Program-made: the position numbers and the translations under genes
Assembly (NCBI GenBank): GCA_019120125.1
Contig: DWVR01000051.1
Location: forward strand, 5,618 to 69,617
DNA length: 64,000 bases
Direction: 5' to 3'
DNA from: Candidatus Phocaeicola excrementigallinarum
GTDB lineage: Bacteria > Bacteroidota > Bacteroidia > Bacteroidales > Bacteroidaceae
The notes under the pieces: generated by a model
What the model saw: the letters and a program-made list of their open reading frames with translations, nothing else
Databases searched by the model: none
Told to the model about the DNA's origin: nothing
Shown here: one piece after another, positions 50,470-56,320 of the stretch
Layout of the letters: each line of letters opens with the position of its first letter
Numbering within the stretch: position 1 is the stretch's first letter

Positions 50470-50501
50470 CGGTTGAAAAACATTTAAATCAACTTATTAT
50501 T

Positions 50502-51461
50502 ATGGGTTTATTATCAAGTTTATTCGGAGAAAAGAAACCGGACGATAACCGGACCCCGCAAGAAAAGCAGGACCAGAAAAACTTCGACATACTCAAATAC
50601 GACGGAATCCGCGCGCGCAACATGGGCAGACTGGACTATGCCATCAGATGCTTTGAACAGGCCATCGGCCTGAACGACGAGCCTGAGACACTGGGACTCC
50701 TCGCACATGCCTATCTGCAGGCCAACCGCACGGACGACGCACGGCTTACATTGGACCGCCTGGTGCGACAGAACCCTTCGGACCTCCACGCCCTGCTCTC
50801 TCTGGCCGGCGTATGCTACATGCAGGAAGATTATGCGACCATGAAAGAAGTATGCCAGAAAGCCATCGCACAGGATGACAAGAACGCACAGGCTTATTTC
50901 CTGGCTGCACGGGCTGAAAGAGGATTGAAAAACGACCTGAACGCTATCGTAATGCTTACAAAAGCGCTCGCACAAAACGAGACTTTCACACAAGCCTACC
51001 AGCTGCGCGCCGAAGTGCTGTGGGACATGCGGCAGGCACATGAGGCGACGGACGACCTGAACCATATTCTTTCGCTCAATCCGGACGATGAGGACGCGCT
51101 GCTGCTGAAAGGAAGAATCGAGGCAGCCACAGGCCATGCGGACGAAGCGGAAACCTGTTTCAACAGGACTCTGGAAGTGAACCCTTTCAACGAGACCGCT
51201 TACCTGCTGAAAGGGGAAATATTATGCGGACTGAAAAAGGCGGAAGAGGCCGAAACGCTCTATACGGAAGCCATCGACCTGATGCCTGACAAGGCCGTAT
51301 TCTATCAGGAACGGGGCCGCGTCCGTCTGCTCAACGGCAACAAGGAAGGTGCCGCCGAGGACATGAAAAAGGCCATCGAAATAGCCCCTGAGAAAGAGGG
51401 ACAGATTACCGGAAACTTCAGCAACTTCGGGAAAGACGGCATACAGACAGGCATCTACTGA
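50502..51461 (+). CDS. Tetratricopeptide-repeat protein
   Basis: 319 aa from MGLLSSLFGEKK. Repeated 34-residue A..Y/F...A...P patterns. Confidence 0.8.
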   Translation: MGLLSSLFGEKKPDDNRTPQEKQDQKNFDILKYDGIRARNMGRLDYAIRCFEQAIGLNDEPETLGLLAHAYLQANRTDDARLTLDRLVRQNPSDLHALLSLAGVCYMQEDYATMKEVCQKAIAQDDKNAQAYFLAARAERGLKNDLNAIVMLTKALAQNETFTQAYQLRAEVLWDMRQAHEATDDLNHILSLNPDDEDALLLKGRIEAATGHADEAETCFNRTLEVNPFNETAYLLKGEILCGLKKAEEAETLYTEAIDLMPDKAVFYQERGRVRLLNGNKEGAAEDMKKAIEIAPEKEGQITGNFSNFGKDGIQTGIY

Positions 51462-51524
51462 AAGGCAAAAGGCCTGGGATGAAACGAAAAAACAAGGAAT
51501 ATCAAAGAAAAATTCAAGAAAACA

Positions 51525-51554
51525 TTTGTTTTTTCAAGAAAAGTATTACATTTG
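51525..51554 (+). promoter_or_regulatory. Candidate promoter of the aromatic operon leader (-33 TTTG, -7 TACATTTG)
   Basis: TTTG at 51525-51528 and TACATTTG at 51547-51554 (18-nt gap), 34 nt upstream of the leader ATG. Confidence 0.45.
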
Positions 51555-51587
51555 CATCCGAAATGATAACAAAATAACAACAAACGT

Positions 51588-51677
51588 ATGAAAACATTTG
51601 CTACATACTTCTTCTTTTTCTTTTATTACTTTTACTTTAGCAATGAAGTGAAGCGGGAGTTTGTATGTGTACGTTAA
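51588..51677 (+). CDS. Putative Phe/Tyr-rich leader peptide (29 aa) of the aromatic amino-acid biosynthesis operon
   Basis: Hand translation gives MKTFATYFFFFFYYFYFSNEVKREFVCVR-stop, with 11 consecutive aromatic codons at 51606-51638. It is below the ORF-track size cutoff and sits between a promoter-like box and a terminator. Confidence 0.6.
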   Translation: MKTFATYFFFFFYYFYFSNEVKREFVCVR

Positions 51678-51715
51678 AAACAAAATGAACTGAACAAAAA
51701 CGAATAAGAATAACG

Positions 51716-51751
51716 AAATCCCGCTTCCGAACGAAGTCGGGATTTTTTTTT
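51716..51751 (+). terminator. Attenuator terminator 17 nt upstream of pheA
   Basis: AAATCCCGCTTC-CGAAC-GAAG(T)CGGGATTT (8+4 bp, one bulge) running into a T9 tract ending at 51751. The 5' arm is complementary to 51650-51658. Confidence 0.7.
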
Positions 51752-51768
51752 AGACTAAAGCAAACAAG

Positions 51769-52611
51769 ATGAAAAAAATAGCGATACAAGGAATCGTGGG
51801 GTCATATCACGACATTGCCGCCCACAAGTATTTCAAGGATGAGGAAATCGAACTGGTCTGCTGCAACACGTTCGAGGAGGTGTTCGATGCCATGAAGAAA
51901 GACAACAACATTATCGGAATGATCGCCATCGAGAATACCATCGCGGGAAGCCTGCTCCACAACTACGAGCTGCTCCGTGACAGTGGGGCCACCATCCTCG
52001 GCGAGCACAAGCTCCGCATCAGCCACAGCATCATGTGTCTGCCGGGCGAGGACTGGAGCACACTGACCGAAGTCAACTCCCACCCCGTGGCTCTGGCACA
52101 ATGCCGGGACTTCCTCCAGCACCGCCCCCAACTGAAAGTAGTGGAAACGGAAGACACGGCCGCCAGCGCCCGAGACATCAAGGAGAAAGGGCTGAAAGGA
52201 CATGCCGCCATCTGCTCGAAATATGCCGCCGAACTCTACGGCATGAAGATCCTGCAGGAAGGCATCGAGACCAACAAACACAACTTCACCCGCTTTCTCG
52301 TGGTGTGCGACCCGTGGATAGCCGACGACCTGAAGGTCCGCTCCAGACTGAACAAGGCGAGCATCGTATTCTCGCTTCCGCACAGCGAGGGAAGTCTTTC
52401 AAAAGTATTGTCCATCTTTTCATTCTACAACATCAACCTGACCAAGATACAGTCGTTGCCCATCATCGGACGGGAATGGGAATACATGTTCTACGTGGAC
52501 GTGATGTTCGACGACTACCTGAGATACAAACAGTCCATCGACGCAGTAACCCCATTGACAAAAGCACTTAAAATATTAGGAGAATATGCAGAAGGAGAAT
52601 CAACCATATAA
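51769..52611 (+). CDS. pheA: Prephenate dehydratase
   Basis: 280 aa. PDT domain (IAIQGIVGSYHD, TRFLVV) plus ACT domain (SIVFSLPHSEGSLSKVL). Confidence 0.9.
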   Translation: MKKIAIQGIVGSYHDIAAHKYFKDEEIELVCCNTFEEVFDAMKKDNNIIGMIAIENTIAGSLLHNYELLRDSGATILGEHKLRISHSIMCLPGEDWSTLTEVNSHPVALAQCRDFLQHRPQLKVVETEDTAASARDIKEKGLKGHAAICSKYAAELYGMKILQEGIETNKHNFTRFLVVCDPWIADDLKVRSRLNKASIVFSLPHSEGSLSKVLSIFSFYNINLTKIQSLPIIGREWEYMFYVDVMFDDYLRYKQSIDAVTPLTKALKILGEYAEGESTI

Positions 52612-53770
52612 GATTGAGCCGGCCGACAGGTTGGCCAACGTGAGCGAATACTATTTCAGCCGGAAACTGAAAGAAGTGGCCCGCATGAACGCGGAAGGAA
52701 AGAATGTAATCAGTCTCGGAATAGGAAGCCCTGACCTGCCCCCCTCGGAAGAGACCATCAAGGTGTTGTGCGAGAACGCGCAGAAGCCGGACGCGCACGG
52801 ATACCAGCCTACTGTAGGCATTCCGGAACTCCGGCAGGCCATGGCAAAATGGTATAAACGATGGTATGATGTCGACCTGGACCCGAATACGGAAATCCAG
52901 CCGCTCATCGGTTCGAAAGAGGGCATCCTGCATGTCACTCTGGCTTTCGTGAACGTGGGCGACCAGGTGCTGGTGCCGAATCCGGGATACCCCACCTACA
53001 CTTCACTCAACAAGATCCTGGGGAGCGAGATCGTGAACTACGACTTGCGGGAGGACAACCACTGGCAACCGGACTTCGACCAATTGGAGAAGATGGACCT
53101 GAGCCGCGTGAAGCTGATGTGGACCAACTATCCGAACATGCCTACCGGAGCCAACGCTACGATGGAACTGTATGAAAAGCTGGTCGACTTCGCACGCCGC
53201 CATAACATTGTTATCGTCAATGACAACCCCTACAGCTTCATCCTCAACCGGAAACCACTCAGCATACTGAACGTGCCGGGCGCCAAGGAATGCTGCATCG
53301 AGTTCAATTCGATGAGCAAGAGCCATAACATGCCGGGCTGGCGTGTGGCTCTGGCGGCCACCAACGCGCAGTTCATCCAATGGATCGTGAAAATCAAGAG
53401 CAACATCGACTCCGGCACTTTCCGCCCCATCCAGCTGGCCGCCGCACAAGCCTATGACAACAGTGCGGAATGGCACGAGGAAGCGAACGTAAACGTGTAC
53501 GGCAGACGCCGCAGGCTGGCCGAGGAAATCATGCGGACACTGGGATGCACGTTCGACCCCGAGCAGGTGGGCATGTTCCTCTGGGGGCGTATCCCCGACA
53601 CGTATGCCGACGTAGAGGAACTGACGGAAAAAGTGCTGCACGAGGCCCGCGTGTTCATCACTCCGGGATTCATCTTCGGGAGCAACGGAAAACGGTACAT
53701 CCGTATCTCGCTATGTGCCAAGGAAGAAAAACTGGCCGAGGCACTTGAACGGATCAGAAAAATCATGTAA
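52586..53770 (+). CDS. Class I/II PLP-dependent aminotransferase (aromatic/prephenate aminotransferase candidate)
   Basis: 394 aa. NPGYPTY, SMSKSHNMPGWRVA PLP-lysine motif. The start overlaps the pheA end by 26 nt. Confidence 0.85.
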   Translation: MQKENQPYKIEPADRLANVSEYYFSRKLKEVARMNAEGKNVISLGIGSPDLPPSEETIKVLCENAQKPDAHGYQPTVGIPELRQAMAKWYKRWYDVDLDPNTEIQPLIGSKEGILHVTLAFVNVGDQVLVPNPGYPTYTSLNKILGSEIVNYDLREDNHWQPDFDQLEKMDLSRVKLMWTNYPNMPTGANATMELYEKLVDFARRHNIVIVNDNPYSFILNRKPLSILNVPGAKECCIEFNSMSKSHNMPGWRVALAATNAQFIQWIVKIKSNIDSGTFRPIQLAAAQAYDNSAEWHEEANVNVYGRRRRLAEEIMRTLGCTFDPEQVGMFLWGRIPDTYADVEELTEKVLHEARVFITPGFIFGSNGKRYIRISLCAKEEKLAEALERIRKIM

Positions 53771-53798: not shown

Positions 53799-54866
53799 AT
53801 GGAACTCGAATTGCAACCCATCGAATTGGAAGGTGTATCAAAAGAACGGCCTTTGGTCATTGCAGGCCCCTGCAGTGCCGAAACAGAAGAACAGGTGATG
53901 ACAACCGCCAGACAACTGGCCGACAAAGGTGTCAAGATTTTCCGTGCAGGCATCTGGAAACCGCGCACCAAACCGGGAGGATTCGAAGGAATCGGTGTGG
54001 ACGGACTGGCCTGGCTGAAAGAAGTGAAGCAGGAAACGGGAATGTATGTCACCACCGAAGTGGCTACGGCCAAACACGTGTATGAAAGTCTGAAAGCCGG
54101 CATCGACATTCTTTGGATCGGAGCACGTACCACTGCCAATCCGTTTGCAGTGCAGGAAATCGCCGATGCGCTGAAAGGAGTGGACATTCCGGTCCTGGTC
54201 AAGAACCCGGTCAATCCGGATCTGGAACTGTGGATAGGCGCACTGGAACGCATCAACAACGCGGGACTGAAACGCATCGGAGCCATCCACCGCGGATTCT
54301 CTTCGTACGACAAGAAGATCTACCGCAACCTGCCACAATGGCATATCCCCATCGAGTTGCGCCGCCGCATCCCGGCACTGCCGATTCTGTGCGACCCGAG
54401 CCACATCGGAGGGAAGCGTGAGCTGATAGCACCCCTCTGCCAGCAGGCCATGGACCTGGGGTTCGACGGTCTGATTGTGGAATCGCACTGCAATCCGGAC
54501 GCGGCATGGAGCGACGCCGCACAACAGGTTACTCCGGACATCCTCGACTATATCCTGAACCTGCTGGTCATCCGCTCGGAACACCAGAGCACGGAAAACC
54601 TGAACGACCTGCGCCGCCAGATTGACGAATGCGACAACGAGCTGATGGACATTCTGGCAAAACGTATGCGCGTATGCCGCGAAATCGGTACATTCAAGAA
54701 AGAGCACAACATGACCATCCTGCAGACCGGACGATACAACGAGATTCTGGACAAACGCGGCGCGCAAGGCGCGCTTTGTGGCATGGACTCCGACTTCGTG
54801 AAACAGGTATTCGAGCTGATTCATGAAGAAAGTGTGCGCCAGCAAATGGAAATCATCAATAAGTAA
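53799..54866 (+). CDS. Bifunctional 3-deoxy-7-phosphoheptulonate (DAHP) synthase / chorismate mutase type II
   Basis: 355 aa. N-terminal type I-beta DAHPS (VIAGPCSAE, CDPSH) and a C-terminal CM_2 segment (LRRQIDECDNELMDILAKRMRV). Confidence 0.9.
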   Translation: MELELQPIELEGVSKERPLVIAGPCSAETEEQVMTTARQLADKGVKIFRAGIWKPRTKPGGFEGIGVDGLAWLKEVKQETGMYVTTEVATAKHVYESLKAGIDILWIGARTTANPFAVQEIADALKGVDIPVLVKNPVNPDLELWIGALERINNAGLKRIGAIHRGFSSYDKKIYRNLPQWHIPIELRRRIPALPILCDPSHIGGKRELIAPLCQQAMDLGFDGLIVESHCNPDAAWSDAAQQVTPDILDYILNLLVIRSEHQSTENLNDLRRQIDECDNELMDILAKRMRVCREIGTFKKEHNMTILQTGRYNEILDKRGAQGALCGMDSDFVKQVFELIHEESVRQQMEIINK

Positions 54867-54922: not shown

Positions 54923-55696
54923 ATGAGAATACTGATCCTGGGAGCCGGGAAAATGGGCTCCTTCTTTACCGACGTGCTGAGCTTCGAGCACGAAGTGGCC
55001 GTATATGACATCAATCCGCAGCGCCTGCGGTTCATGTACAACTGTTACCGTTTTACGGAAATCGAGGAAATCGAGAAATTCAAGCCCGAACTGGTCATCA
55101 ACGCCGCTACGGTAAAATATACGCTCGATGCGTTCCGGCAGGTGCTCCCCGTGCTGCCGAAGGACTGCATCATCAGCGACATCGCTTCCGTGAAGACCAA
55201 CCTGAAAGAGTTTTACGAGAACTGCGGGTTCCGCTACGTGTCGACCCACCCGATGTTCGGACCGACTTTCGCCAATCTGGACAAACTGAGCGAGGAAAAT
55301 GCCATCATCATCAAAGAGGGAGACCATCTGGGACGCATTTTCTTCAAGGACCTTTACCAGCGTCTGGGGCTGAACATCTTTGAATATACGTTCGAGGAGC
55401 ATGACGAGACAGTGGCCTACTCGCTGTCCATCCCCTTTGTCTCCACTTTCGTGTTCGCCGCAGTGATGAAGCATCAGGACGCGCCGGGAACCACTTTCAA
55501 GCGCCACATGTCGATTGCCCGGGGAGTGCTCAGCGAGGACGACTACCTGCTGCAGGAAATACTCTTCAATCCGCGCACACCGGCACAAGTGGAAGGAATC
55601 CGTACGGAACTGAACGAACTGCTGGACATCATCAGTCGCAAGGATACGGAAGGGATACATGCCTATCTTGGCAAGATTCGCAGTCACATAAAATGA
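54923..55696 (+). CDS. tyrA: Prephenate dehydrogenase
   Basis: 257 aa. MRILILGAGKMGSF Rossmann motif, SVK...HPMFGP motif. Confidence 0.8.
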   Translation: MRILILGAGKMGSFFTDVLSFEHEVAVYDINPQRLRFMYNCYRFTEIEEIEKFKPELVINAATVKYTLDAFRQVLPVLPKDCIISDIASVKTNLKEFYENCGFRYVSTHPMFGPTFANLDKLSEENAIIIKEGDHLGRIFFKDLYQRLGLNIFEYTFEEHDETVAYSLSIPFVSTFVFAAVMKHQDAPGTTFKRHMSIARGVLSEDDYLLQEILFNPRTPAQVEGIRTELNELLDIISRKDTEGIHAYLGKIRSHIK

Positions 55697-55710
55697 TACG
55701 AACAAAAAAA

Positions 55711-55743
55711 CAGGCGTGCCCTCCCGAGGAAAAGACACGCCTG
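55711..55743. terminator. Short hairpin between convergent genes (8-bp stem flanked by A- and T-runs)
   Basis: CAGGCGTG (55711-55718) pairs with CACGCCTG (55736-55743). It is preceded by AAAAAAA and followed by CTTTT. Confidence 0.4.
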
Positions 55744-55759
55744 CTTTTATCGTATCGAC

Positions 55760-56320
55760 CTAGAATCTATATCCTACTCCGATTGAGAAGTTCATATTCT
55801 TCGGATGATCTGTCGAAACGATCTGTTCCAACGGAGAAATAAAACCGTGCTGTGCTGCAAAATTAACCAAATAGTGGTCAGACAGTTCAAAGCCCACTCC
55901 CCACTGGAAACCGAAATCTCCACGTTTCCAACCGTCGAATACCTTCGACTCATAATCATCATGTTTATTCTTTCCTCCCAGCCCGATTGCCACATAAGGA
56001 CCCGCATTGATTACGAACCGGGCATTCTCTGTGAGAGTAATCTTATAGGCAGCCAAAATAGGAATATCCATATAAACAGGACGCACTTTCCATCCACCGT
56101 TCTTATAGCCTCTCGATGTGAACATCAGTCCCGGCTGGAACGCCCAACTTTCATTGAATTCATAATCCATGCCCGCCCCCAACGTAAATCCAGGCAAGGC
56201 TTTCACGTCCCGCTGAGTCATGTTGCTGAAATTCAAACCCAACTTCACATCCCATCTCCATTGGGAGAAACCCACTAAGGCAACCATCGCCAAAACGCAT
56301 GTCAACAATAGTTTTCTCAT
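55760..56320 (-). CDS. Small outer-membrane beta-barrel (porin/Opa-like family) protein
   Basis: 186 aa, signal peptide, alternating amphipathic beta-strands, C-terminal ...SIGVGYRF. Confidence 0.75.
   Translation of the reverse strand: MRKLLLTCVLAMVALVGFSQWRWDVKLGLNFSNMTQRDVKALPGFTLGAGMDYEFNESWAFQPGLMFTSRGYKNGGWKVRPVYMDIPILAAYKITLTENARFVINAGPYVAIGLGGKNKHDDYESKVFDGWKRGDFGFQWGVGFELSDHYLVNFAAQHGFISPLEQIVSTDHPKNMNFSIGVGYRF

Follow-up and report, generated by a model that had tools for sequence, protein, structure and literature searches.

A Phe/Tyr-rich leader peptide and competing RNA helices upstream of pheA in gut Bacteroidales: a probable ribosome-mediated attenuator

A stretch of 64,000 nucleotides from Candidatus Phocaeicola excrementigallinarum (contig DWVR01000051.1 of assembly GCA_019120125.1, positions 5,618 to 69,617 of the forward strand), hereafter called the window, carries a four-gene operon for aromatic amino acid biosynthesis beginning with pheA. 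Directly upstream of pheA lie a very short open reading frame (ORF) rich in Phe and Tyr codons and an intrinsic terminator, and the question raised by this locus is whether the two together form a device that adjusts transcription of the operon to the supply of Phe and Tyr, as a first-pass annotation made from the DNA letters had proposed. The element is a real and strongly conserved attenuator of a known type that is uncurated in the gut Bacteroidales. We consider it highly probable that it acts as a classical ribosome-mediated transcription attenuator of the pheA-aminotransferase-DAHP synthase/chorismate mutase-prephenate dehydrogenase operon, sensing both Phe-tRNA and Tyr-tRNA. The coordinates of all features are collected in Table 1.

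The leader ORF opens with the ATG at 51588 and ends with the TAA at 51675-51677, and all coordinates given for the 29-codon ORF and its run of seven Phe and four Tyr codons by the first-pass annotation were confirmed on the sequence. The codons of the run (TAC TTC TTC TTT TTC TTT TAT TAC TTT TAC TTT) constitute the only Phe/Tyr run of at least five codons found across the six reading frames of the window. In 300 Markov simulations of the window, no Phe/Tyr run was longer than six codons, and none of 20000 simulations at the local G+C content of 31% reached a run of 10; the 11-codon run is far from chance. A scan of the window for other leader-like small ORFs (runs of His, Trp, Leu, Ile/Val, Thr and others) gave no credible candidate, and a covariance-model search of the window for a second copy of the element returned none, the next-best match being the antisense strand of the terminator (17.8 bits). 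Nine leader peptides, including that of the window itself, were furthermore looked up in a collection of 15 billion proteins; exact copies of only two of the nine were present, both as unnamed ENA gene calls, and annotation pipelines systematically miss the leader ORF. Within the run, positions 51609-51626 also contain slippery U-rich stretches (UUC UUC UUU UUC UUU U), and such runs reportedly lead to high-level incidental frameshifting in E. coli pheL (PMC3082878).

The conservation of the element was followed outwards from the window, whose PheA is 99% identical to that of a metagenome-assembled genome of an uncultured 'Bacteroides' and 85-93% identical to those of Phocaeicola species. A Phocaeicola-group sample with one genome per species comprised 80 loci (PheA 75-99% identical to that of the window), and a Phe/Tyr-rich leader ORF was found in all 77 of the 77 loci with enough upstream DNA; Phocaeicola vulgatus (L056) is among the species with the element. 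Loci of the Parabacteroides/Tannerellaceae type carry the same leader arrangement (leader MNRFSFTYFFYYFYFSRVKAGVCM), as do Coprobacter loci, in both cases on contigs with PheA 63-71% identical to the window's. A metagenome scan anchored on a PheA 53% identical to that of the window added 80 further loci (PheA approximately 50-60% identical), most of which have a Phe/Tyr leader, e.g. MTRFYAYYFSYFYFARN, MKNFDFAYYFYFYFYFGEK and MRLYGFAYYFFYFFFYSKGRSGMACN. In total, leader and terminator were found upstream of pheA in 157 of 170 loci from Phocaeicola, Parabacteroides/Tannerellaceae, Coprobacter and Bacteroidales metagenome contigs, where 143 loci were recognized by a leader-ORF-plus-terminator heuristic and 14 were recovered by a covariance model built from an alignment of 124 non-redundant units (eight of the 14 complete and outside the seed, six cut by a contig end). 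Of the remaining 13 loci, 10 had ample upstream DNA without the element and three were too short to judge; two more Bacteroidales loci also lacked it, one behind frr and one from Rikenellaceae. A scan of viral contigs for pheA loci gave one irrelevant match (27% identity).

Among the loci where pheA has no leader (L090, L091, L099, L108, L110, L117, L124, L126, L128, L135 and L164), the gene in some cases follows directly after another gene (frr in L090), and in L117 and L126 a promoter motif stands immediately before the ATG. Several lineages have therefore either lost the attenuator or never acquired it.

The 124 non-redundant units encode 100 distinct leader peptides of 17-32 amino acids. 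The run has a median composition of six Phe and four Tyr codons, and at least two Phe and at least two Tyr codons are present in 120/124 units; all four codons (TTT, TTC, TAT, TAC) are in use across the units and Trp is absent. Substitutions within the run are nearly all Phe to Tyr, Tyr to Phe or synonymous, and the tail that follows the run, of 2 to 15 residues, varies freely. A functional small hydrophobic protein co-transcribed with pheA could also leave a conserved peptide, with two exact copies among the gene calls of the protein collection, but the remainder of the pattern makes such a protein extremely unlikely. The length and the C-terminus are free to vary, the stop codon can fall on either side of the 5' strand of the antiterminator (segment 2), the conserved residues of the 'tail' coincide with this RNA segment, and the run is conserved in aromatic class only. 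In addition, the ORF is always located between promoter and terminator upstream of pheA, in every locus that carries it.

In the window, GAAGCGGGA (51650-51658) is the exact complement of TCCCGCTTC (51719-51727), i.e. part of the 5' arm of the terminator, which agrees with the perfect complementarity reported in the first-pass annotation. The proposed antiterminator pairing was borne out for these nine base pairs but its extent had been understated, as four further pairs (51660-51663 with 51714-51717) follow after one mismatch. The terminator stem and its T-run were likewise found at the positions first assigned to them, with 17 nucleotides (nt) between the end of the T-run at 51751 and the pheA ATG at 51769. 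The aromatic-codon run (segment 1) is also able to pair with the purine-rich segment 2, forming a 1:2 helix.

Covariation was read on a MAFFT alignment that covered the 124 units and had been made without reference to any structure. For the nine antiterminator pairs, 90.3% of cells were paired (33-52% when slid), and eight of nine pairs had changed on both sides (73 cells), which was reached by 0 of 500 shuffles. The four-pair extension was paired in 76.7% of cells with a covariation score of 0.38 (at most 0.15 when slid), all four pairs having changed on both sides (53 cells), while the six basal pairs of the terminator were paired in 99.7% of cells (18-51% slid), with changes on both sides in five of six pairs (35 cells). 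A terminator was found in 124/124 units. The relatives thus displayed both the conserved aromatic run and the compensatory changes in both helices that the first-pass annotation had suggested looking for. The values for the 1:2 helix were lower, with 82% of cells paired against 55-64% slid, and changes on both sides, in 8 of 16 pairs, were weak. An outer extension of the 1:2 helix (51599-51608 with 51663-51671), which is part of the minimum free energy (MFE) structure of the window and involves most of the ORF, was rejected as a conserved feature, being paired in 59.2% of cells compared to 58.6% in shuffled ones.

Segment 2 was also searched for in each unit as the best partner of the terminator 5' arm between the run and the terminator. 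The resulting 2:3 duplex had a median energy of -16.6 kcal/mol over the 124 units, compared to -7.2 kcal/mol for dinucleotide shuffles; the duplex energy was matched by 0/100 shuffles in 77% of units and by at most 5/100 in 98%. The helix occurs in many different versions across the named genera, including AAGCGGGA:UCCCGCUU, GAGCGGGA:UCCCGCUC, GAGCAGGA:UCCUGCU, AGGCAGGA:UCCUGCC, GAACGGG:CCCGUUC and AAGGUGGGA:UCCCACCUU, which argues for repeated compensation, though the counts are not corrected for phylogeny.

The position of segment 2 relative to the run was found to be nearly constant, starting 8-13 nt past the end of the run in 115/124 units (12 nt in the window), whereas the stop codon varies in position, from 7 nt before the segment 2 start to 37 nt beyond it. 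Segment 2 is thus placed relative to the regulatory codons and not to the end of the peptide. When compared to the generally known size of the ribosome footprint, this placement fits a ribosome that would leave segment 2 free when stalled in the run and would cover it when passing. Two sub-types of leader can be distinguished by the stop codon. Leaders of 17-19 amino acids (L067, L074, L078, L095, L127 and others) have the stop codon 0-7 nt before segment 2, so that a terminating ribosome would mask segment 2, while in leaders of 24-32 amino acids, including that of the window, segment 2 lies within the ORF by 14-37 nt; the two sub-types do not differ in how far segment 2 is from the run.

The ability of the run to pair with the purine-rich segment 2 would also be expected of an RNA switch that works without translation of the ORF, where a protein, a tRNA or a small molecule binds the U-rich tract or segment 2 and the run is a mere pyrimidine tract pairing with segment 2. 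The sequence of the run makes such a switch very unlikely, since it follows a strict T-[T/A]-[T/C] periodicity in the frame of an ATG that lies 3-9 codons upstream, uninterrupted by stop codons, through 100 distinct peptides. Nearly all changes are exchanges of Phe and Tyr or synonymous, and the Tyr codons (UAU/UAC) weaken the pairing with the purine tract. Furthermore, no T-box or riboswitch family matched the region, and segment 2 is found at a footprint-like distance from the run.

In Coprobacter, two complete leader-terminator units are arranged in series upstream of pheA (L082:1208-1335 and L082:1352-1484; also in L083, L084 and L087). The tandem leaders, MMNTFGFTYFYFYFYFKRK and MRTFHRFYFYFFYYFMNT, each have their own covarying 2:3 pairs (GAACGGGG:CCCGUUC and AAGGUGGGA:UCCCACCUU); both units are recovered by the covariance model, and a promoter motif was seen by eye before the first unit only. 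Tandem leader-peptide attenuators would sharpen the response. In loci of the Parabacteroides type, a gene encoding a LysR-family regulator immediately precedes the leader in the same orientation (L081:311-1237, L086:324-1250, L089:299-1225 and L085:1-608), and this gene could either add another level of control or have nothing to do with the leader.

The folding of the window RNA was in agreement with the mutually exclusive structures anticipated in the first-pass annotation. For the free RNA, the MFE structure consists of the 1:2 hairpin and the terminator (-37.1 kcal/mol). Masking of the run, in imitation of a stalled ribosome, makes the antiterminator take over, and the terminator is lost (-21.5 kcal/mol); when the run and segment 2 are both masked the terminator is back (-16.1 kcal/mol). 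Switching at equilibrium was rejected as a general description, as the antiterminator wins in only 34/124 units, the window among them, when segment 4 is present and the run is masked. In nascent RNA before segment 4, on the other hand, segment 2 captures the 5' arm of the terminator in 116/124 units with the run masked. With the terminator mostly the MFE structure at equilibrium and this frequent nascent capture, we treat the switch as kinetic. The trp attenuator of enterobacteria such as E. coli is likewise understood as kinetic.

The terminator is the equilibrium structure in 124/124 full-length units, as would also be expected if it damped transcription constitutively and in part or gave rise to a stable small RNA, independently of amino acid supply and with no regulatory role for the antiterminator. 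Small RNAs derived from attenuators are known in other bacteria (rnTrpL in Sinorhizobium). A dampener would however have no function for the 2:3 helix that compensatory changes maintain, and the aromatic ORF is conserved alongside this helix. An element of the same design in Flavobacterium shows condition-dependent read-through (PMC9723704), and a trans-acting role of the released leader RNA would be additional to attenuation. We therefore regard a supply-independent terminator as highly improbable.

A Bacteroidetes-type promoter pair had been assigned upstream of the leader, and the relatives confirmed it. Of 110 non-redundant upstream regions, 107 have the motif TAnnTTTG in the 80 nt that precede the leader ATG (chance expectation 0.03 per 80 nt), with its end usually 26-30 nt before the ATG, and 104 of the 107 relatives with this -7 motif have TTTG or TTG 12-30 nt upstream of it. 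From the position of the pair, transcription in the window probably starts near 51560, approximately 28 nt upstream of the leader ATG.

Starting from this promoter, a ribosome would translate the leader while RNA polymerase moves on. With ample Phe and Tyr, the ribosome would pass the 11 aromatic codons and then move over segment 2, and in the long-tailed version the freed run may, once the ribosome has gone by, pair with segment 2 again; segment 3 would thereby pair with segment 4, and the terminator would release a predicted transcript of approximately 190 nt ending at the U-tract at 51751. If either Phe or Tyr were scarce, the ribosome would stall within 51606-51638, covering segment 1 and leaving segment 2 free. 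Free segment 2 would capture segment 3 as it is synthesized, no terminator would form and the operon would be transcribed. Translation of the ORF, stalling, coupling of transcription and translation, the 3' end and the response to Phe and Tyr are in this scheme predictions from sequence.

Several observations weigh against ribosome-mediated attenuation as outlined here. The element is missing altogether from at least 12 related loci, and the covariation counts are raw, with no correction for phylogeny. Support for the 1:2 anti-antiterminator is no more than moderate, given the promiscuous pairing of U-rich with purine-rich tracts, and in nascent RNA the 1:2 helix does not out-compete the 2:3 helix at equilibrium in 91/124 units. 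At equilibrium, masking the run leaves the terminator as the MFE structure in 89/124 units if segment 4 is present. To our knowledge, Bacteroidota do not use Shine-Dalgarno-based initiation, and coupling of transcription and translation has not been demonstrated in them. The first-pass annotation had also cautioned about the experimental status of the element, and indeed no experimental test of a pheA leader was found in the literature for Bacteroides or Phocaeicola.

The element was compared to known systems, with the whole window scanned against Rfam at gathering level and the region 50500-52500 scanned at E-values up to 10. Membership of the Phe_leader family (RF01859) was rejected with a score of 24.4 bits (E=0.32) against a gathering threshold of 55. 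No Rfam family reached gathering level anywhere in the window, and weak matches below threshold were to Phe_leader, Thr_leader, mir-1244 and Yfr10; the T-box, riboswitch and Bacteroid-trp models gave no match in 50500-52500 at E-values up to 10, nor in the window at gathering level. Multivalent leaders are known from enterobacteria, where a single leader peptide contains codons for two or more amino acids in keeping with what the operon makes, and a shortage of any of these amino acids lifts termination, as in the leaders of the thr operon (Thr and Ile) and ilvGMEDA (Leu, Val and Ile). The element described here differs from these in the amino acids concerned and shows no homology to them (Thr_leader model 21.1 bits, threshold 55). 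Attenuators in Bacteroidetes/Chlorobi have reportedly been predicted by comparative genomics (Vitreschak et al. 2004; Lopatovskaya et al. 2010, cited in PMC4833913), a class of prediction to which the present one also belongs, for the same phylum.

The pheL-pheA system of E. coli and other gamma-proteobacteria (RF01859; Gurvich et al. 2011, PMC3082878) likewise has a short Phe-rich leader peptide directly upstream of pheA and an RNA of four segments in which antiterminator and terminator exclude each other. Unlike pheL-pheA, to which it has no detectable homology, the present leader mixes Phe with Tyr (approximately six and four codons), the operon also makes Tyr and a common-pathway enzyme, the promoter is of the Bacteroidetes type and there is no Shine-Dalgarno sequence. 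The Bacteroid-trp leader (Weinberg et al. 2010, PMC2864571) is similar in being a predicted Bacteroidetes-specific leader-peptide attenuator of an operon for an aromatic amino acid (Trp), but has Trp codons, another operon and another RNA, and does not match the pheA locus in Rfam. For B. thetaiotaomicron, only a generic remark on small ORFs 'reminiscent of leader peptides' was found (PMC7366714).

The closest described relative is the pheA leader of Flavobacterium psychrophilum, annotated on the basis of transcriptomes by Guerin et al. 2021 (PMC9723704, Table S7), with a mapped 5' transcribed region of 171 nt. In their account, read-through takes place under specific conditions and the operon is most strongly expressed in minimal medium (PMC9723704), which lends independent though indirect support to the present reading. 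The two elements come from the same phylum and share a gene order in which an aminotransferase comes after pheA, an aromatic leader peptide (MNTNNTFYSNNSFYFYWNIGRDCYMVI in F. psychrophilum) and a terminator core of AAUCCCG...CGGGAUU with a U-tract. When the published sequence was analysed in the same way, the run proved to be FYFYW, with segment 2 (AGGAAGGGAUUG) beginning 5 nt beyond it; masking of the run made the antiterminator form in place of the terminator, i.e. the same competition for segment 3. The two were considered homologous from their common architecture and core motifs and not from a scored search. In contrast to that of the window, the F. psychrophilum run is shorter, interrupted and includes Trp, and the organism belongs to the order Flavobacteriales. 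The F. psychrophilum element was annotated in a supplement only, where neither relatives nor covariation were analysed, and Rfam does not include it.

The identities first given to the genes downstream, and the fit of a mixed Phe/Tyr sensor to them, were upheld by Pfam and NCBIfam matches (Table 1). The operon makes Phe and Tyr and contains the entry enzyme of the common pathway, so that its content matches a sensor of both amino acids. The pheA and aminotransferase ORFs overlap by 26 nt in different frames (52586-52611), and as the same overlap is found in the Parabacteroides and Coprobacter loci, translational coupling is suggested. An outer-membrane beta-barrel gene on the minus strand (55760-56320) converges on the operon, and the hairpin between the two, common to both, is probably a bidirectional terminator.

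Table 1 Features of the pheA leader region and the operon in the window
Feature	Position	Strand	Evidence
Bacteroidetes-type -33 element, TTTG	51525..51528	+	sequence read; relatives
Bacteroidetes-type -7 element TAnnTTTG, TACATTTG	51547..51554	+	sequence read; relatives
Leader ORF, 29 codons, encoding MKTFATYFFFFFYYFYFSNEVKREFVCVR	51588..51677	+	sequence read and ORF list
Segment 1, 11 aromatic codons (7 Phe, 4 Tyr), presumed ribosome stalling zone	51606..51638	+	run statistics, relatives
Segment 2, antiterminator 5' strand, GAAGCGGGA G UUUG	51650..51663	+	complementarity, covariation, spacing
Segment 3, strand common to antiterminator (with segment 2) and terminator (with segment 4)	51714..51727	+	covariation, folding
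Intrinsic terminator hairpin (segments 3:4), 12 pairs, bulged U51737, loop CGAAC	51716..51745	+	folding, covariation
Terminator U-tract, 9 T	51743..51751	+	sequence read
pheA, prephenate dehydratase with ACT domain, first regulated gene	51769..52611	+	Pfam PF00800 1.3e-55; NCBIfam NF008865
Class I/II aminotransferase	52586..53770	+	PF00155 2.2e-60
Bifunctional DAHP synthase/chorismate mutase	53799..54866	+	PF00793 4.2e-41, PF01817 1.3e-24
Prephenate dehydrogenase (Tyr branch), last operon gene	54923..55696	+	PF02153 6.5e-10; NCBIfam NF006409 3.4e-17, below cut-off
Terminator-like hairpin, 20 pairs, operon end	55706..55748		hairpin search

The mechanism proposed here is a textbook one, and an element of the same design has already been annotated in a flavobacterium; what is noteworthy is the bivalent sensing of Phe and Tyr, the phylum-wide reach, the Coprobacter tandem and the initiation without a Shine-Dalgarno sequence. 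On balance, we lean slightly towards a broader reading in which a dual-input leader-peptide attenuator, responding to shortage of Phe or of Tyr, is spread across the Bacteroidota from gut Bacteroidales to Flavobacterium, working without Shine-Dalgarno initiation and occurring twice in series in Coprobacter. If true, this would provide direct and genetically tractable evidence for transcription-translation coupling in Bacteroidota, as well as a natural amino acid-responsive switch for the engineering of gut Bacteroides and Phocaeicola. The mixed Phe/Tyr design, the two sub-types and the tandem arrangement are natural variants for probing how ribosome position is read out in a phylum that does not depend on Shine-Dalgarno pairing for initiation. 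No Rfam family covers the element, and the alignment of 124 sequences with its covariance model could seed one. Aromatic amino acid biosynthesis in abundant gut Bacteroidales thus appears to be under the control of an uncurated RNA/peptide switch.

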